Part shown: positions 4,408 through 21,323 of the stretch, one piece after another
Layout: every line of letters begins with the position of its first letter
How positions within the stretch are numbered: position 1 is the stretch's first letter
From: a virus
Taxonomy: Duplodnaviria > Caudoviricetes
IMG/VR virus record: IMGVR_UViG_3300020043_000861
Coordinates: 1 to 24,215 of that record
Length of the DNA: 24,215 bases
Reading direction: 5' to 3' (one strand)
Notes under the pieces: generated by a model
What the model was told of the DNA's origin: nothing
Database searches by the model: none
Seen by the model: only the letters and a program-made list of their open reading frames with translations
Position numbers and translations under genes: made by a program

Positions 4408-6197
4408 GTGTTAATCTTTCCCCTCTGGCTGGTGCTGGTTGGCAATTTTTTGACAATGATGGCGTAATTCTCGCTGGCGGTTTGATTTACACATACGCTG
4501 CGGGTTCATCTACACCTTTGGCAACTTACACCACAAGTGCTGGAAACATTGCCAACGCAAATCCTATTCAACTGGATAGTTCTGGAAGAACCCCAAGCGA
4601 AGTTTGGTTGACTGCTGGCTCAACATACAAGTTTGAAATTAAAACAGCCACAGGCACTTTAATTCGCACTTGGGACAACATTTCAGGCATCAACGACACA
4701 AACACTTTGGCAGAATTAGCCAATAGTAGTGATCCAACAAAAGGCGATGCTTTGGTGGGATTTCGTCAATCAAACTCATCAGGCAATTTGCCAAACACAA
4801 TTGGTAGAACAGTCCATCAAAAATTTCAGCCATACATTGATGCCCATGACTTTGGTGCGTTAGGTCTTAATGCTGATTACACAACGCAACTTCAAAACGC
4901 TATTAATGCAACACCCTTAAATGGTGCTTTGTATCTTCCAAACGGAATTTATCAAATTAGCAGCCAATTGGTAATTAACCAAGCAATTACCATTTTTAGT
5001 GACAATGCACACAACACAGGCACAATTATTTGCCTTGGTTGTTCTGCTTTTAAGATTAATAAAGTTTCGAATGTCGAAATTAAAAGCATGACGATTGCAC
5101 AAGCGGTTCGTTATACGACAACGCCAAATTCTTATTATGGAATTGAAGTGCCTGGCGACACTGTTAATCGTCCATATAATTTGTTATTTCGTGATTTGTA
5201 CATTGATGGATTTCAAACTGCTATTGATACGCAATGGATGTGGTCAAGCGTTTTGGACAATGTGGAATCGGATTTTGGCAAATATGGTTTGATTGCCAAT
5301 AATTTAAGCGCAAACAATGTTGTAACAAATTGCTCTTTTAATGGTGATGGAACTGGTAATGCTATTACCTTAGATGGTTCTGTTGATCCGTCCGAAGGAT
5401 GGATGATCAACAACACATTGACATTTAATAATTATTATGGTGTCTATGGAAAAAACATTGCCCATATTTATATTTCAAACTGCATTTTTGATTTTAACTA
5501 TCAAGCTGGAATTTTGTTAACTAATGACAGCCCACATTGGTCTGCAAATTGGGGAATTGTTAACAACTACATTGCTTTAAATGGTTCAACAGCGCAAGTT
5601 GGCATTTGGTCAACCAATAGTGTGAACGCTGCTTTAAATATTGGCAACATGATTTCAGGAAACACCATTCTTGCTTATCCTGGCGCAACTGCTCTATATG
5701 GTATTTACATGGAAGGGGCGCAATCTAATAACAATGTCATTTCAGGAAATACTCTCAAGAATTTCACAAACAATGACATAAGAACAAACGGGGTTAAGAA
5801 CATCATTATTGGCAACAATTGTCAATCTGCAATTTCATTCAACATTGATTGTGCCGCTGGAATTGTTCAGGGTAATGTTGGAACTTATGTTCAAAATTCA
5901 TTGGTCTTGTGGTCAGGTGGTCAAAGAAAAATTACATACGCAACTGTCAAACCCGCAAGTGGCACATGGGATGAAGGCGACATTTGTTTGAACCTACAGC
6001 CTGGCTATGGCGAGCCAACGGGTTGGACTTGCACATTAGCGGGAACGCCAGGCACATGGTATCCATTTGCACAAGTTGGTGCGACTGCAAGCGTTGGATC
6101 AACACCCTCATTTGTTGGTGAAATTGCAGTTGTTGGCACTACTGCCTATATTGCTGTTGGAACATCAACATCGGGCGATTGGAAACAAATCACATAA
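4404..6197 (+). CDS. Tailspike / polysaccharide depolymerase (pectate-lyase-like parallel beta-helix)
   Basis: N-terminal particle-binding domain (QFFDNDG..LAGG.IYTY.AG...ANPIQLDSSGR). DFGALG..DYTTQLQNAIN...LYLPNGIY marks the start of a Pectate_lyase_3-type fold, followed by Asn-rich ISGNT beta-helix rungs. Confidence 0.85.
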   Translation: MSVNLSPLAGAGWQFFDNDGVILAGGLIYTYAAGSSTPLATYTTSAGNIANANPIQLDSSGRTPSEVWLTAGSTYKFEIKTATGTLIRTWDNISGINDTNTLAELANSSDPTKGDALVGFRQSNSSGNLPNTIGRTVHQKFQPYIDAHDFGALGLNADYTTQLQNAINATPLNGALYLPNGIYQISSQLVINQAITIFSDNAHNTGTIICLGCSAFKINKVSNVEIKSMTIAQAVRYTTTPNSYYGIEVPGDTVNRPYNLLFRDLYIDGFQTAIDTQWMWSSVLDNVESDFGKYGLIANNLSANNVVTNCSFNGDGTGNAITLDGSVDPSEGWMINNTLTFNNYYGVYGKNIAHIYISNCIFDFNYQAGILLTNDSPHWSANWGIVNNYIALNGSTAQVGIWSTNSVNAALNIGNMISGNTILAYPGATALYGIYMEGAQSNNNVISGNTLKNFTNNDIRTNGVKNIIIGNNCQSAISFNIDCAAGIVQGNVGTYVQNSLVLWSGGQRKITYATVKPASGTWDEGDICLNLQPGYGEPTGWTCTLAGTPGTWYPFAQVGATASVGSTPSFVGEIAVVGTTAYIAVGTSTSGDWKQIT

Positions 6198-16526: not shown

Positions 16527-16763
16527 TCAAAAATCGATGTCATCATCCTTTGGCAAGCCTTTGTAATCGTCTTTGGGCTTTGGTTCATTCATGTATGCCC
16601 AACCATTCCATCCACCATCGATAAGCGGAATCATGTCAAGTTTAAGCATCGGGCCGTTCTTGGTCTCAATGACCGAGCCAATGTTTTGGTAGCGGGATTT
16701 CTCCACACCATCTTTGTTTTTGTATTTACCTGAAACAATGGTAATTTCGTAGAGTTTAGACAT
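16527..16763 (-). CDS. Small ssDNA-binding-like protein
   Basis: G.Y...DG.EK.RY..IG beta-rich core with acidic C-terminal tail DDDIDF; adjacent to the exonuclease and annealing protein. Confidence 0.65.
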   Translation of the reverse strand: MSKLYEITIVSGKYKNKDGVEKSRYQNIGSVIETKNGPMLKLDMIPLIDGGWNGWAYMNEPKPKDDYKGLPKDDDIDF

Positions 16764-17382
16764 TTTTGACTTTCATAAGTTTATTGATTTTGTCATCCAG
16801 TTCAGCAAGGAATTGGACAATTTCAGCTTCTATTAGTCTGATGAACACTTCATCCCGTGGGACTCTTGTTACAAACAATTGAAGTTCCTCTGGCAGACGA
16901 TTGTCAAAAGACACAAAGTCACACCACTGTCGCCCTGTGCAAGCCATCTGAAACTGCATCTGGGTGTTGTACTTGCCTAGCACTGATTGACTAAGCAAAG
17001 TCTCAATGTGCGTGGCAGTGTTGGGGCATTTGATCTCAATCAGACCATCATCACCCACCAAGCCATCAGGAGAAGCGCCAGCCATGATTATTGAGGGATG
17101 GGGTACAAACCCCACTTCATCAACCAAAACATCCTGTAAAGCCTCATAAGCGGCTCTGGCAAGGGGTTCTGTGTCTGTGCCATGTTGCATGGCAGCGTTC
17201 GTGAAACTCTCACCCTTTTGACCTGTGAGGCGTTCACACACCAACTGAGCCATGTAGTTGTCACGGGTTGCTGAATAGCCCGTCTTTGTCTTGGCAAGAA
17301 CGTCAGCTACACGAGATGCGGTGACTTTGCCAATTCGGACTTGAAACCAAGATTCCGAACCCTGATCCATCATTTCAATCAT
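16756..17382 (-). CDS. YqaJ-like / lambda-exonuclease family 5'-3' exonuclease
   Basis: QGSESW...RIGKVTAS, M.HG...EP.AR..YE, GASPDGLV, IEIKCP, Y..QMQ.QM..TG..WCDFVS. Confidence 0.92.
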   Translation of the reverse strand: MIEMMDQGSESWFQVRIGKVTASRVADVLAKTKTGYSATRDNYMAQLVCERLTGQKGESFTNAAMQHGTDTEPLARAAYEALQDVLVDEVGFVPHPSIIMAGASPDGLVGDDGLIEIKCPNTATHIETLLSQSVLGKYNTQMQFQMACTGRQWCDFVSFDNRLPEELQLFVTRVPRDEVFIRLIEAEIVQFLAELDDKINKLMKVKNV

Positions 17383-17588
17383 TTTTTCATACCCCTTATG
17401 TATGCTGTAAAACTGCCGATTGTGTCTTTGCCAAACGCTGTCATTTTTTCTATTTCTTTTGCCACTTCCTCAAGCACTTGATTGCGTTGTGAGGGTGAGA
17501 CAAAAACATCCCAATGGTATGGCTGACCACTTTTCATTTCCGCTTCATGGGCGATGCGGTCGAATTCATCATCTTCATCTGTTTTCAT
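17379..17588 (-). CDS. Hypothetical protein
   Basis: Coupled ATGA overlaps; contains RNQVLEEVAKEIE, a segment typical of small phage proteins. Confidence 0.65.
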   Translation of the reverse strand: MKTDEDDEFDRIAHEAEMKSGQPYHWDVFVSPSQRNQVLEEVAKEIEKMTAFGKDTIGSFTAYIRGMKK

Positions 17589-18139
17589 AGTTTGGCCTTT
17601 GCTTTGTCTTTGGCTGCAATGACTTTGATCTGCCAGGCTTTGTCGCCATCACAAGCCGCATACGCTACTTTATAGGCAATCTTGAGTTCGTCTTGAGTGG
17701 TGGCGCTTTCAATAGCCGCAAACAAGTCTGTCATTGTGTCAGGCTCAATGGTTGACTCAGGCTCTATGAAAGACGGGAGATCATCTCCGTTGTAGATGTA
17801 CAGACCGAGACCATGCAAGCTGAGTGCCTTGGTCATGCACCGCATGATGGCTGTATTCACTTGGAAAGCATCAGGGTTCACGATGGCTTTGTTGCGGTGA
17901 TCCATCACAGGGAGTTGGCAAGTCATTGGCTTGTCAAACATGGTGACAGTAACCCACACCATTGCTGTGCCGTTGATGTCCATAAAGCACTTGTCACCAA
18001 ACATCTCAACCTTGAACGAGGCTTTGGCATCAGCTTTAAGTGCTTCAGCCCATGCCCAAGCCCAAGACAAGTAAGTCAGATTGGCTTTCTTCTCAGTGTG
18101 TTCGTTGACATTCAAAGTCAGTAAATTAGCGATTGACAT
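17585..18139 (-). CDS. Single-strand annealing protein, Sak3/DUF1071 (Rad52-like)
   Basis: NVNEHTEKK..LTYLSWAWAW, LPVMDHRNK, N.AIMRC.TKA..LHGLGLYIY.G.DLP signatures. Confidence 0.85.
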   Translation of the reverse strand: MSIANLLTLNVNEHTEKKANLTYLSWAWAWAEALKADAKASFKVEMFGDKCFMDINGTAMVWVTVTMFDKPMTCQLPVMDHRNKAIVNPDAFQVNTAIMRCMTKALSLHGLGLYIYNGDDLPSFIEPESTIEPDTMTDLFAAIESATTQDELKIAYKVAYAACDGDKAWQIKVIAAKDKAKAKL

Positions 18140-18959: not shown

Positions 18960-18968
18960 TTGGTTTCC

Positions 18969-19109
18969 TTAAATAAGCCAAATGTCAATGCCAGTAGCTT
19001 TGGGGTACTGAGACAGGATTTGTTTTTCAAGTTCATAACGCCCAACAGCCCAAATTTCTTGAGAGTGTTGTTTGTAATTGCAGAAAAAATTGATGCCATA
19101 AAGTTTCAT
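18969..19109 (-). CDS. 46-aa first gene of the leftward early operon (not in the ORF track)
   Basis: Translates as MKLYGINFFCNYKQHSQEIWAVGRYELEKQILSQYPKATGIDIWLI*. Strong AGGAG SD; its stop abuts the SD of the next gene. Confidence 0.62.
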   Translation of the reverse strand: MKLYGINFFCNYKQHSQEIWAVGRYELEKQILSQYPKATGIDIWLI

Positions 19110-19152
19110 TTGCTCTCCTAAATAGACCCCGAGAAGTTCAGGGCATGGCGCA

Positions 19153-19180
19153 AGTGTACACCAAACTAAACACGCAACAA
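19153..19180 (-). promoter_or_regulatory. Candidate leftward early promoter
   Basis: Minus strand TTGTTG, 16-nt spacer, TACACT (19158-19153), about 45 nt upstream of ATG 19109. Confidence 0.4.
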
Positions 19181-19189
19181 TGTTTTTTT

Positions 19190-19207
19190 ATTAGGACTTT
19201 CCCTAAT
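19190..19207. promoter_or_regulatory. Palindromic operator candidate between the divergent promoters
   Basis: ATTAGG-actttc-CCTAAT, a perfect 6-bp inverted repeat. Confidence 0.5.
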
Positions 19208-19240
19208 GTTGTATTTATGCAAATGCTTAAATGTTTATTT

Positions 19241-19249
19241 TGATATACT
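19241..19249 (+). promoter_or_regulatory. Extended -10 promoter driving a leaderless cro-like mRNA
   Basis: TG-a-TATACT, with 6 nt to ATG 19256 and no SD. Confidence 0.55.
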
Positions 19250-19255
19250 TCAAAA

Positions 19256-19408
19256 ATGGATAAACAAAAGGCTATCACCCTTGCTGGCTCACAGAGTGAG
19301 CTTGCTCGCATCTTGGGCATCACCAGGGCAGCAGTACACAATTGGAAAACAATTCCAACTGGTAGGCTTTATCAATTGATGATCCTCAAGCCAGAGTGGT
19401 TTAAATGA
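19256..19408 (+). CDS. Cro-like HTH regulator (50 aa; not in the ORF track)
   Basis: MDKQKAITLAGSQSELARILGITRAAVHNWKTIPTGRLYQLMILKPEWFK*, a classic Cro/YdaS-type HTH pattern at the divergence point. Confidence 0.85.
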   Translation: MDKQKAITLAGSQSELARILGITRAAVHNWKTIPTGRLYQLMILKPEWFK

Positions 19409-19528
19409 TTTTTTTATTTTTCTTCATTTTTGCGTTCATCTTGTTGGTAGGTGAGGCCAGCTTTTATTGGTGGTTGTTGCTTTTTTTCTGGCTTTTTTAC
19501 GCAATCTCCACAAAAAACTAAAAATATG

Positions 19529-19534
19529 TATAAT
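19529..19534 (+). promoter_or_regulatory. Consensus -10 box upstream of the structured leader
   Basis: Perfect TATAAT 6 nt before the first hairpin at 19541; no good -35 seen. Confidence 0.45.
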
Positions 19535-19540
19535 TCAAAT

Positions 19541-19700
19541 CGTCTGAGTGGCATCAGACGAGCGAAACCAATTGCGAACCCCATAGATTTCTGTGCGGTC
19601 TTGCCTGACAACAGGCGAACTTTTGATTGGTTTCAATCGTTTGTTGTTGCTCTCGCCAAGAGCCAAGACCGCAGAGTGATTTATGGGGTTTTTTGCTTTT
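19541..19700 (+). ncRNA. Multi-branched structured RNA ending in a U-tract (C4/CI-like antisense or attenuator candidate)
   Basis: Hairpin CGTCTGA/TCAGACG; outer stems 19577-19588/19679-19690 and 19594-19603/19664-19673; three inner hairpins; poly-T at 19689-19701. Confidence 0.6.
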
Positions 19701-19890
19701 TGGCTGACCGTCAGGGCGCGTTAGCAAATGGTCTGCATGGACTGAACCCAAGAAACACCGACAACAGGACACACCCCCTGACTTGCCGACCAGCGTTGGT
19801 TAAGCGACTGGTAAAGGATTGGGTACAACGGTGGAACAAGGCCCAATCTATAAGCGAATTGACCCGTCAAGCGCACTTGGTCGCTTTTGT
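19701..19890 (+). ncRNA. Second structured RNA domain with potential pseudoknots
   Basis: GTCAGGG/CCCTGAC, ACCAG/CTGGT and GATTGGGT/GCCCAATC stems, plus crossing pairings CACCG/CGGTG and CCAAG/CTTGG. Confidence 0.5.
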
Positions 19891-19968
19891 TTTTAGTTAG
19901 CTAAATTAAGATGAATTATGGAAAACAGATCGATGGAGAAAGGTGGTATATCCACCCTTGGAGAACCT

Positions 19969-20340
19969 ATGCCTGAATTATTTGAATCAGGGTTTGAAAG
20001 ATTCTGGAAAGCATGGCCCTCATCAACAAGAAAGGGTGCGAAGTCAGAATGTAAAAAGAAATGGGAAAAGCATTACTGCGAAACCCAAACCGACCAGATC
20101 ATCAAACACATTGAATGGTTAAAGACCACAGAGCAATGGCTTAAAGGCAATGGTGCTTTTATTCCCGCCCCGTTGGTCTATCTCAACCAACAACGATGGG
20201 ATGGCGCAGAAGTGCCTGAGATGAAGCCCAAACCCACAATAGACCCCGCCTTGGCAAAGATCGAAGCTGACCGCAAAAAGGCTTCACCCATGCCTGAATA
20301 CATAAGGCTAAAAATCGCACAAATGAAAGGTAGGTTATGA
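19969..20340 (+). CDS. Replication-initiator C-terminal-domain-like protein (no N-terminal HTH)
   Basis: FERFWKAWP...RKGAK..C.KKW...FIP.P..YLNQ.RW matches the C-terminal domain pattern of phage replisome organisers. GGAG SD before ATG 19969; alternative starts at 19918 and 19933. Confidence 0.72.
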   Translation: MPELFESGFERFWKAWPSSTRKGAKSECKKKWEKHYCETQTDQIIKHIEWLKTTEQWLKGNGAFIPAPLVYLNQQRWDGAEVPEMKPKPTIDPALAKIEADRKKASPMPEYIRLKIAQMKGRL

Positions 20341-21323
20341 ATGAGTTGGCTCTTTTCGCAGGCGCTGGTGGAGGAATACTTGGTGGACACCTCCTTGGTT
20401 GGAGAACAGTCTGTGCAGTCGAATGGGAGCAATACCCAGCAAGCGTACTGTGCGCCCGACAAAATGACGGGCTTCTCCCGCCTTTCCCGATTTGGGATGA
20501 TGTACAAACCTTTGACGGAAAACCTTGGAGACAAATTGTTGATGTTGTATCTGGAGGATTTCCTTGCCAAGATATCTCTGCCGCAGGAAAAGGTGTCGGA
20601 ATCGATGGAGAGCGAAGCGGGATGTGGGGAGAAATGGCGAGGATCATTCACGAAGTACGACCCAAGTTCGTATTCGTGGAAAACTCACCAATGCTCACTT
20701 CTAGGGGACTTGGACGAGTTCTTGGAGATTTGGCCTCAATGGGGTTTGATGCGAGATGGGGAGTGTTGGGAGCAGCGGACGTTGGAGCAAACCATCAGAG
20801 GGACAGAATCTGGATTGTCGCCAAATGGCATGGACAGTTTTCACACGCCCAACACAACAGGATTAGACGGTGGGAGCAACAGCAGAAAAGCCTTAAAAAA
20901 ACGTATGGAAAAATGGCCAACACCAGCGACCAAGGGTTATGGTCATGCGGCAGAGGGGATGGTGGGCAATCTGATCGAGAAAATAGAACAAGGTGTGATA
21001 ACCAAATTGGAAGCCGAGCAGATGTTGAGTTTGCCCAAATTGGAAAACCACAGGACTTGGAAAAAGAAATTTCCGACACCGCAAGCCTCAGACAACAGGG
21101 ACAGGGGCAACATGAGCAACTCAGTAGTTCAAAGACGAGTAGCGATAGGCAAGCAAATTTTATTAAGCCAATCGGTTCATCCGACTTCTGGACAACTGAA
21201 CCCAACGTGGGTCGAGTGGTTGATGGGTTGGCCTCTCGAATGGACAGACTTAAAGCCATTGGTAATGGACAAGTCCCTCTCTGTGCAGCAACAGCCTGGA
21301 GAATCCTAAGTGAATCACTATGA
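20337..21323 (+). CDS. DNA (cytosine-5)-methyltransferase, catalytic (alpha-like) chain
   Basis: Motif I LFAGAGG, motif IV GGFPCQD (20553), motif VI ENS (20679), motif VIII HQRDRIW (20793), motif X RLKAIGNG (21246). No clear motif IX in this frame. Confidence 0.9.
   Translation: MNELALFAGAGGGILGGHLLGWRTVCAVEWEQYPASVLCARQNDGLLPPFPIWDDVQTFDGKPWRQIVDVVSGGFPCQDISAAGKGVGIDGERSGMWGEMARIIHEVRPKFVFVENSPMLTSRGLGRVLGDLASMGFDARWGVLGAADVGANHQRDRIWIVAKWHGQFSHAQHNRIRRWEQQQKSLKKTYGKMANTSDQGLWSCGRGDGGQSDRENRTRCDNQIGSRADVEFAQIGKPQDLEKEISDTASLRQQGQGQHEQLSSSKTSSDRQANFIKPIGSSDFWTTEPNVGRVVDGLASRMDRLKAIGNGQVPLCAATAWRILSESL
20341..21309 (+). CDS. Nested +1-frame ORF, putative methyltransferase second (beta-like) chain
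   Basis: 322 codons without a stop, wholly inside the MTase gene. Contains FHTP/WPTP/FPTP repeats and LNPTWVEWLMGWP.EWTD, a motif IX-like block of phage C5-MTases. Confidence 0.72.
   Translation: MSWLFSQALVEEYLVDTSLVGEQSVQSNGSNTQQAYCAPDKMTGFSRLSRFGMMYKPLTENLGDKLLMLYLEDFLAKISLPQEKVSESMESEAGCGEKWRGSFTKYDPSSYSWKTHQCSLLGDLDEFLEIWPQWGLMRDGECWEQRTLEQTIRGTESGLSPNGMDSFHTPNTTGLDGGSNSRKALKKRMEKWPTPATKGYGHAAEGMVGNLIEKIEQGVITKLEAEQMLSLPKLENHRTWKKKFPTPQASDNRDRGNMSNSVVQRRVAIGKQILLSQSVHPTSGQLNPTWVEWLMGWPLEWTDLKPLVMDKSLSVQQQPGES

Follow-up and report, generated by a model that had tools for sequence, protein, structure and literature searches.

The window analysed here, 24,215 bases long, spans a whole IMG/VR virus record that is lambdoid in layout and estimated to be 73% complete, and the subject is an RNA element that lies in the early region, between a Cro-like gene and a gene for a protein related to phage replication initiators. 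Structural and lysis genes run on the + strand up to 15957 and are followed by a leftward block, 15950 to about 19110, that encodes an exonuclease, a Sak-like annealing protein and small open reading frames (ORFs). After cro, the + strand block continues with, in order, a protein of 123 amino acids (aa) that appears by sequence to resemble only the C-terminal part of phage replication initiators (hereafter rep-like; a Pfam search gave no match for it), a C5 methyltransferase, RusA, NinB and others. The gap between cro and the rep-like gene, 19409-19968, is without a credible ORF. Within it, the stretch 19701-19890 had been flagged in an initial annotation as a compact, pseudoknot-rich RNA domain of unrecognised family upstream of a replication gene. 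That description has held, as has the location ahead of a replication-type gene: the flagged stretch is the core of a multiply pseudoknotted RNA of about 265 bases that recurs, conserved, in numerous uncultured tailed phages and is matched neither by Rfam 15 nor by ARAGORN.

Folding energy gave little hint of such a structure. The minimum free energy (MFE) of 19701-19895 on the + strand is -55.5 kcal/mol, against -55.4 +/- 4.8 kcal/mol for dinucleotide shuffles (z -0.03), and 100 of 200 shuffles fold equally well; the minus strand gave z +0.72 and the full unit, folded as 19706-19975, z -1.94. Taken by itself, the comparison for 19701-19895 speaks against the RNA that the initial annotation proposed. 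Covariation among relatives is the stronger test and clearly favours structure. The structure that was scored was derived from visible compensatory changes and was evaluated in three alignments: A2 (82 rows, MAFFT), in which 94.3% of the cells are paired and 32 of 44 pairs show compensatory changes; A3 (70 rows including members diverse in helix P2, MAFFT), with 92.8% paired and 39 of 48 pairs compensatory; and A5 (58 distinct rows), with 92.4% paired and 41 of 48 pairs compensatory, which adds members found via the neighbouring protein and, being aligned to our covariance model (CM) R1, is biased towards the structure. When the 3' partners are moved by one column, the paired fraction falls to 38.7-38.8% in A2, 38.7-40.0% in A3 and 37.4-38.3% in A5, and in none of the three did any of 500 column shuffles attain the covariation score of the real data. 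At the level of sequence comparison, this shows that the conserved RNA fold is real; a conserved fold with covariation support in A2, A3 and A5 is also one of the marks by which a riboswitch would be recognised.

The fold belongs to none of the families that were searched. Rfam 15 was scanned with 4227 models, which include hammerhead, twister, pistol, hatchet, HDV-like, glmS, group I and group II as well as RNase P, transfer-messenger RNA (tmRNA), 6S, GOLLD, ROOL and the known riboswitches; at gathering scores there was no match in the whole window, and at E up to 10 the interval 19300-20000 gave two sub-threshold matches, both outside 19706-19971. ARAGORN found no transfer RNA (tRNA) or tmRNA gene in the window. 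In 239 related loci it found two tRNAs, 161-176 nucleotides (nt) from the element and neither overlapping it; tRNA adjacency, a candidate prompted by a T-arm-like string in one relative (L008), was rejected because a tRNA is present in only 2 of the 239.

Well over 100 phage contigs of IMG/VR carry the element in conserved form. A 19-mer from P2 has exact matches at no fewer than 119 IMG/VR loci (an estimated 130 or so), and a 17-mer from P1 at 120 or more (about 210 by estimate). Among GenBank phages, blastn found one record, the uncultured MW202484.1, with 158/193 identities and 10 gap positions over the element; three blastn queries matched no cultured GenBank phage, an absence that may explain why the element went unnoticed. 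In 185,579 representative prokaryote species genomes the 19-mer has seven hits, and all seven lack the flanking motifs and are chance, so the element looks phage-specific. CM R1 recognises 19706-19892 at 181.7 bits as the sole copy in the window, and there is likewise one copy in each of five long records (three of them complete) and one in MW202674.1. Conservation sets in abruptly at 19706, with unrelated sequence upstream of this point in the relatives. Contigs of four RNA libraries also hold relatives of the element, one piece covering 19706-19811 with 6 differences and another 19753-19974; such contigs are no evidence of transcription, ends or strand, and they may stem from carried-over DNA.

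Table 1. The conserved RNA, its helices and the features that flank it, from 5' to 3' in window coordinates
Feature	Position	Strand	Composition	Evidence
Cro-like helix-turn-helix gene	19256..19408	+		PF14549 P22_Cro E 2.5e-9; phrog_409
Sigma-70-like promoter	19507-34	+	TCCACA, 16-nt spacer, TATAAT	score 10/12
Hairpin RNA "U"	to 19704	+	U-run 19690-19700 directly before the element	fold of 19538-19704
Whole conserved RNA unit	19706..19971	+	Domain I, Domain II, variable hairpin P9, Domain III; ends in start codon	
P1 hairpin	19706-07 and 19709-10 with 19719-22	+	C19708 bulged; loop L1 UCAGGGCG 19711-18	A5: 89.2% paired, 2/4 pairs covary
PK0 pseudoknot	19714-16 with 19747-49	+	L1 GGG with CCC directly after P2	four complementary states
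P2 hairpin	19730..19743	+	GGUCU/GGACU, loop GCAU	A5: 98.3% paired, 5/5 covary (compensatory)
P3 (uncertain)	19748..19880	+	CCAAG 19748-52 with CUUGG 19876-80	overlaps PK0
P4	19759..19788	+	19759-61 with 19786-88, enclosing P5	A5: 89.1% paired, 3/3 covary
P5	19765-68 with 19777-80	+	CAGG with CCUG, conserved loop ACACACCC	A5: 96.5% paired, 5/5 covary
P6	19789..19812	+	19789-95 with 19805-06 and 19808-12; A19807 bulged	A5: 98.0% paired, 6/7 covary (compensatory)
PK1 pseudoknot	19798..19864	+	P6 loop GGUUAA 19798-803 with UUGACC 19859-64	6/6 pairs covary
P7	19816..19849	+	19816-24 with 19841-49; loop with conserved GGUGG and ACAAG	A5: 95.3% paired, 9/9 covary (compensatory)
P8	19865..19873	+	CGU 19865-67 with GCG 19871-73	A5: 98.9% paired, 2/3 covary
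P9 variable hairpin	19881..19936	+	T-run 19886-95 (5' strand) with AAAACAG 19922-28	MFE fold of 19874-19975
Domain III	19934..19968	+	UGGAG 19934-38; P10 AGGUGG 19941-46 with CCACC(C)U 19952-58; Shine-Dalgarno (SD)-like UUGGAG 19958-63	
First cistron, 123-aa protein	19969..20340	+		phrog_9474 E 5.9e-14 (profile positions 176-260 of 288); phrog_270

The RNA is built of Domain I (P1, P2 and the pseudoknot PK0), Domain II (P4-P8 and the pseudoknot PK1), the variable hairpin P9, and Domain III with the sequence-conserved P10 (Table 1). G.U pairs are frequent, G19730.U19743 in P2 being found in 82 of 82 A2 rows, and since each of them would be an A.C mismatch on the other strand, the RNA is read from the + strand. 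PK1 is paired in 99.0% (A2), 99.3% (A3) and 98.6% (A5) of cases, with up to five pair types per position. Whole pairs are inverted in some relatives: G19710:C19719 in P1 becomes C:G in 12 of 82 A2 rows, and G19866:C19872 in P8 becomes C:G in 18 of 58 A5 rows. PK0 varies most visibly as a set of complementary states, which among the 60 A5 rows are GGG/CCC (34), UCCA/UGGA (20), UGACU/AGUCA (2) and GAG/CUC, the last found in L321 as a single compensatory change; the remaining three of the 60, cut at the 5' end, show CCA/UGG.

The initial annotation had listed five nested stems and three long-range crossing pairings, and the complementary segments are all present where it had placed them. Covariation divides them. 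Three of the stems stand, GGTCT/GGACT (19730-43) as P2, ACCAG/CTGGT (19789-19812) as P6 and GATTGGGT/GCCCAATC (19817-48) as P7. The other two do not survive the comparison with relatives: position by position, GTCAGGG/CCCTGAC forms standard pairs in 29, 47, 17, 12, 34, 54 and 70 of the 70 A3 rows, its 3' half pairing instead with CAGG 19765-68 in P5, and AAGCGA/TCGCTT does so in 31, 39, 41, 14, 21 and 11. Nor is the crossing pairing GCGC/GCGC upheld (59, 69, 38 and 60 of 70), for a change at 19872 is compensated by 19866, in P8, and not by 19718. The halves of these three unsupported pairings belong to P5, P9 or P8 and P1. A second crossing pairing, CACCG/CGGTG, is retained in part: CACC/GGUG is paired at its four positions in 52-57 of 58 A5 rows and shows one-sided changes only, none of them compensatory, so that it is possible but unproven. 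The third, CCAAG/CTTGG, is P3. It forms in the window and in most GGG/CCC members, with one compensatory clade, and is impossible in the UCCA/UGGA (type 2) members and in L321; paired in 86.4% (A2), 77.3% (A3) and 68.2% (A5), with 3 of 6 pairs covarying in A5, it is either specific to a subtype or an alternative to PK0, with which it shares CCC. The elements that the initial annotation lacked are P1, P4/P5, P8, PK1, PK0 and the 3' third, 19881-19971. A consensus scan also proposed an intrinsic terminator at 19869-19895, which was rejected because its stem, AAGCGA/TCGCTT, is paired in only 11-41 of 70 rows per position; the U-run of this supposed terminator pairs within P9, and many members lack it.

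Where the neighbouring protein shares 98% identity with that of the window, a UCCA/UGGA Domain I is joined to a Domain II identical to the window's, and Domain I therefore behaves as an exchangeable, internally co-adapted module. The family is wider than the architecture seen in the window, because about a third of the loci that share Domain I have other middle domains. Among the 100 such loci found with the 17-mer (L129-L228), the full model scores 64 at more than 100 bits and 33 at 19.5-84.7 bits, and three are cut by locus ends; the 33 carry other, longer middle domains. These variant RNAs span about 300-420 nt from Domain I to a "CUAUGG" end, and none has an Rfam match, 20 variant loci having given only 3 sub-threshold junk matches. 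One locus (L162, 398-649) has two tandem copies of Domain I ahead of one Domain II, and another (L068, 1471-1675) has Domain I fused directly to Domain III, without Domain II; these natural duplication and deletion variants are useful for testing domain function.

We show that the 3' end of the conserved RNA is a translation-initiation region. P9, which differs among loci in length and sequence, covaries at the base of its stem (core188/189 with tail22/21) and leads into Domain III, whose anchor, (A/C/T)CACCCT with the preceding hairpin, is present in 114 of the 117 set-1 loci, the other three being cut by locus ends; the window has one copy of the motif. The 3' strand of P10 is almost invariably (U)AUCCACCC, followed by U(U/A)G..., usually by an SD-like GGAG, GGGG or AGGA, and by a start-type codon. 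Across 89 unique sequences, the codon 10-12 nt past CACCC is ATG in 60, TTG in 18 and GTG in 9, never CTG, and two have none. The window follows this pattern: its codon is AUG 19969, which shares the frame of the rep-like ORF and has GGAG 19960-63 ahead of it. Because this AUG is the conserved codon, lies in frame and is preceded by GGAG, we place the start of the rep-like gene at 19969, not at 19918, and the 140-aa ORF call from 19918 probably overextends it. The initial annotation had judged the region to look more like a ribozyme or large non-coding RNA than an untranslated region (UTR), a judgement that does not fit a unit which continues for 90 bases to an SD-like motif and a start codon.

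What the conserved codon opens differs from locus to locus. Among 60 unique loci with enough downstream sequence, 20 have an ORF of 40 aa or longer beginning at this codon, and the other 40 a mini-ORF. Half of these mini-ORFs (20) end between -79 and +15 nt from the ATG of the next long ORF, 15 end 74-176 nt before it, and for 5 there is none; the closeness of mini-ORF and next gene could partly come from compact genomes alone, and it is no proof of translation. Two complementarities could connect the 5' part of the RNA with this region. In the window, the MFE fold of 19706-19975 pairs CCAAG 19748-52 with CUUGG 19956-60, beside the SD-like motif, and in UCCA/UGGA members the L1 sequence is complementary to UGGAG.

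The company that the element keeps was assessed in two samples. In the first, the best 80 of 541 IMG/VR contigs encoding relatives of the rep-like protein, with the RNA called by R1 at E up to 0.001, 56 loci have the RNA, and in all 56 it lies upstream of the gene and on its strand; it ends 75-123 nt ahead of the rep-like gene in 32 of the 56, the others having at least one small ORF in between. In the 19-mer set, the downstream coding sequence is on the same strand at 45 of 67 loci, on the opposite strand at 2 and tied at 20, and the upstream coding sequence is on the opposite strand at 16 of 66. The element also occurs in other settings: after a rep-like gene, as in MW202484.1, where the homologous gene precedes the element instead of following it; ahead of HNH-like genes and others; and, at some 10 unique loci, in the interval that separates a T7-type scaffold gene (PF05396) from a capsid gene (PF19821).

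At five of the capsid-context loci (L004, L009, L012, L056 and L063), a terminator hairpin follows the scaffold gene about 420 nt upstream of the element. TTGACA lies in the loop of this hairpin, and the T-run acts as the spacer to a TATACT/CATAAT box, which builds a promoter into the terminator; after this terminator-promoter comes a small RNA with a conserved GCAGUAGUAAGCGGC and a U-run end. On the 3' side of the element, these loci have a second promoter-like site and then a capsid 5' UTR of about 190 nt. In MW202674.1 (L250), a P22-type coat gene within 16569-18084 is annotated as split, 16569-16871 and 17089-18084, with a non-coding-looking gap of about 217 nt that is possibly an intron. 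The element itself was considered as a capsid-gene intron and rejected, for in MW202674.1 it sits elsewhere, at 5125-5308.

Upstream of the element in the window, the promoter is followed by a hairpin RNA, which we call U. The fold of 19538-19704 has -78.1 kcal/mol against -44.4 +/- 3.7 kcal/mol for shuffles (z -9.1) and consists of a hairpin on the 5' side (19540-61) and a long, branched one that ends in the U-run; U looks like a separate small RNA or an attenuator. Pieces of U stand alone in RNA-library contigs (19519-19693 and 19569-19693). Relatives carry analogous cassettes of promoter, RNA and T-run ahead of the element: a T-run lies no more than 40 nt upstream at 62 of 70 unique loci, and a sigma-70-like promoter scoring at least 10/12 lies 109-216 nt upstream on the same strand at 23 of the 70 and on the opposite strand at none. 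Since the space between the U-run and 19706 is too short for a promoter, read-through would be the simplest way for polymerase to reach the element. A search for covariation between U and the element gave nothing convincing.

Some features of the neighbouring genes are recorded here in their own right. No CI-type repressor gene is visible next to cro in 18960-19255 of this 73% complete record. Leftward of the divergent promoter region, the first ORF has only about 44 codons (about 18977-19109), and the translation of 18977-19111 on the minus strand has a stop. Beyond the rep-like gene, two long + strand methyltransferase ORFs, 20337-21323 and 20341-21309 (328 and 322 aa), lie in different frames, overlap almost fully and match separate PHROG families (phrog_363, E 5e-67, and phrog_1008, E 1.8e-26); the pair is either a dual-coding stretch or the product of frameshifts or assembly errors in one gene.

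We posit that the RNA 19706-19971 is a cis-acting leader that governs the start of translation, and perhaps the fate of the transcript, of the cistron at its 3' end. We infer this function tentatively and hold it with somewhat less than even confidence. The element has the anatomy of a leader, because an SD-like motif and a start codon stand at fixed spacing at its end and because it heads co-directional genes. Its transcript would start from the promoter at 19507-34, with polymerase reading through the upstream hairpin and U-run, and the folded Domains I and II would then set the access of ribosomes to the SD-like GGAG 19960-63 and to AUG 19969. Access could be controlled (i) through the way in which Domain III is presented, or (ii) through switching of PK0 with alternative pairings of CCAAG 19748-52, which could engage L1 (through CCC, in PK0), CUUGG 19876-80 (P3) or CUUGG 19956-60 by the SD-like motif. 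The second scenario is conjecture, because covariation between Domain I and the SD region was not found. Downstream genes that are not fused to the AUG might be served via short leader ORFs terminating at the starts of these genes or close to them. A bolder version of the cis-acting leader, possible though rather doubtful, would make the element a new and portable class of phage leader RNA with multiple pseudoknots, able by itself to recruit or gate the ribosome at a start codon 10-12 nt past its last hairpin, with PK0 as the switch and with recombination moving the cassette before different genes.

Several observations weigh against a cis-acting leader. Covariation of Domain I was sought with the SD tail, and nothing convincing emerged. 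The SD-like motif is absent in some members, which have tails such as UAGCUAAACC. In the capsid-context clade and in MW202674.1 the conserved start opens an ORF of only 3-13 codons, followed by a promoter-like site, and the RNA cannot be the leader of the next gene there. The downstream genes are diverse (rep-like, capsid, HNH-like and others), which is unusual for a metabolite riboswitch, and about a third of the Domain I loci have other, longer middle domains. The strong conservation of the loops would equally suit a ribozyme or a trans-acting ribonucleoprotein (RNP), and the RNA-library contigs show only that relatives are present.

A rival reading is a different kind of RNA, one that is stable and "ornate", is processed from the operon transcript and acts in trans on a host or phage partner, as a small RNA (sRNA), as an RNP component or by self-assembly, its adjacency to a start codon being incidental to compact genomes. 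The abundance of invariant nucleotides in loops and junctions would suit such an RNA, as would the presence of two or more pseudoknots, its flexible position (after cro, before or after the rep-like gene, between scaffold and capsid genes), the promoter-like sites 3' of it in the capsid clade and in MW202674.1, its single copy per genome, and PK1, whose loop-linker pairing could in principle be intermolecular. We nevertheless consider a trans-acting RNA unlikely. Domain III and the fixed start-codon spacing are kept in 87 of 89 unique members, and the 56 copies near a rep-like gene, among the best 80 of 541 loci, are without exception upstream and co-directional. The upstream T-run is too close to the element to leave space for a dedicated promoter, and there is no conserved 3' terminator, the T-run after the core being the 5' strand of P9 in the window and absent in many members.

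The nascent fold could instead bind RNA polymerase and carry it past the terminators of the long rightward operon, as a processive antitermination RNA like HK022 put or Bacillus EAR. The element heads long co-directional blocks, often at a divergent junction (upstream opposite at 16/66 loci, downstream same at 45/67); in the window it stands between cro and the remaining + strand genes; its core is directly followed by T-runs in many members; and Domain I is highly conserved across otherwise different RNAs, as would be expected of a conserved contact with a host machine. A put-type antiterminator should, however, lie between the promoter and the first terminator, and in 62 of 70 loci the element comes after, not before, the nearest terminator-like hairpin. 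CM R1 finds no copy in HK022 at E up to 10, a test of homology only, which argues against homology with put; there is one copy per phage although leftward operons exist; and antitermination leaves the fixed link to a start codon unexplained. We regard it as quite unlikely.

A self-cleaving or otherwise catalytic RNA, which would process the polycistronic transcript at the 19706 boundary or near Domain III, is more improbable. Other ribozyme classes are common in phage intergenic regions, and the sharp 5' boundary of conservation at 19706, with unrelated sequence upstream of it in relatives, the nested-pseudoknot architecture and the many invariant unpaired bases would be in keeping with one; no Rfam ribozyme family is matched, and RNA-library contigs cross 19706 into upstream sequence, a weak point since DNA carry-over is possible. 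Finally, the idea that there is no RNA element at all, and that the stretch is protein-coding (ORF 19451-19900, 149 aa) or a DNA-level origin or attachment site, can hardly be right: the open frame does span the region in the window, GenBank has a hypothetical coding sequence (CDS) across the homologous stretch of MW202484.1 and a replication-type gene adjoins, but among 87 unique relatives only 31 keep this frame open and no more than 17 any other, 759 of the 844 internal gap runs have lengths not divisible by three, column entropy per codon phase (0.83, 0.80 and 0.83) has no 3-base periodicity, compensatory changes with strand-specific G.U pairs indicate selection at the RNA level, and the 19-mer with its flanking motifs is in no representative prokaryote genome, 7 of 7 hits being chance. 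ORF 19451-19900 is very likely spurious, as is the "hypothetical protein" CDS 33533-33892 annotated across the homologous RNA in MW202484.1, and these two corrections, with the gene start moved to 19969, amend the annotation of the region. What probability remains is left for functions that we have not thought of.

Full-text literature searches yielded no description of this RNA, and the available portions of the Minerva preprint and of PMC10690425 describe nothing like it. The latter, an intergenic screen of IMG/VR by Fremin et al. (2023), reports in its available portion 8,495 candidate RNAs of 29-151 nt (PMC10690425), among which fragments of the element may be present, unnamed. Suspected resemblances to motifs of the rRNA 3' end, RNase P, retron msr and the cobalamin riboswitch were dropped, having been followed up by Rfam scans only, which were negative. 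We rate the element as a new family of structured phage leader or non-coding RNA, not as something categorically new. A large conserved RNA with two covariation-proven pseudoknots that is absent from Rfam 15 would be a rare addition to the complex RNAs of bacteria and phages. Whether its partner proves to be the ribosome, the polymerase, a ligand or a protein, the element points to an unstudied site of control where phage early or replication operons begin, and it offers a compact natural scaffold for structural work.

Among known systems, HK022 put (putL/putR) and EAR share with the element that they are structured, phage-borne RNAs in a lambdoid-type early region downstream of cro and, if our reading of a cis-acting leader is right, that they act in cis on their own operon and need no dedicated phage protein gene nearby. 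The put RNA is about 70 nt long and has two stem-loops, whereas the element has about 265 nt with at least two pseudoknots, comes after a terminator-like hairpin, is present once per genome and is tied to a start codon. The phi29 pRNA, of 120-170 nt, is likewise a single-copy phage RNA with covarying loop complementarity; the loop of the element, in contrast, pairs with a linker in Domain II of the same molecule, the element is contiguous with a coding start, and no need for a pRNA is known in its P22-like, lambdoid and T7-like contexts. With riboswitches and protein-operated leaders, of which the pseudoknotted translational operator upstream of T4 gene 32 is an example, the element has in common a conserved pseudoknotted fold that covaries and leads directly into an SD-like motif and a start codon, and that is co-directional with and usually adjoins one gene family (56 of the best 80 of 541 loci). 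It differs from them in matching no Rfam 15 family, in preceding unrelated genes, in having a mini-ORF alone in one clade and in that no covariation for an alternative pairing was found.

GOLLD and ROOL, as described in the accessible part of PMC12286853, are complex multi-helix, pseudoknotted RNAs of phages and prophages with conserved loops, known mainly from environmental sequence, and the element resembles them in being a phage-borne, complex pseudoknotted fold with strongly conserved loops and a mainly environmental record (PMC12286853). It is two to three times smaller, has no match to the GOLLD or ROOL models of Rfam, lacks adjacent tRNA genes (2/239 loci) and ends in a ribosome-binding site. 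A more distant parallel, by analogy only, is the intergenic internal ribosome entry site (IRES) of dicistroviruses, which, according to the portion of the source that was available, belongs to a eukaryotic RNA virus (10.1101/2021.01.28.428736): it too would be an intergenic RNA of about 200 nt with several pseudoknots that abuts the next ORF (the capsid region in some relatives). If the element does gate the ribosome as a leader, it would be the counterpart, in a bacterial virus, of a hybrid between IRES and riboswitch.

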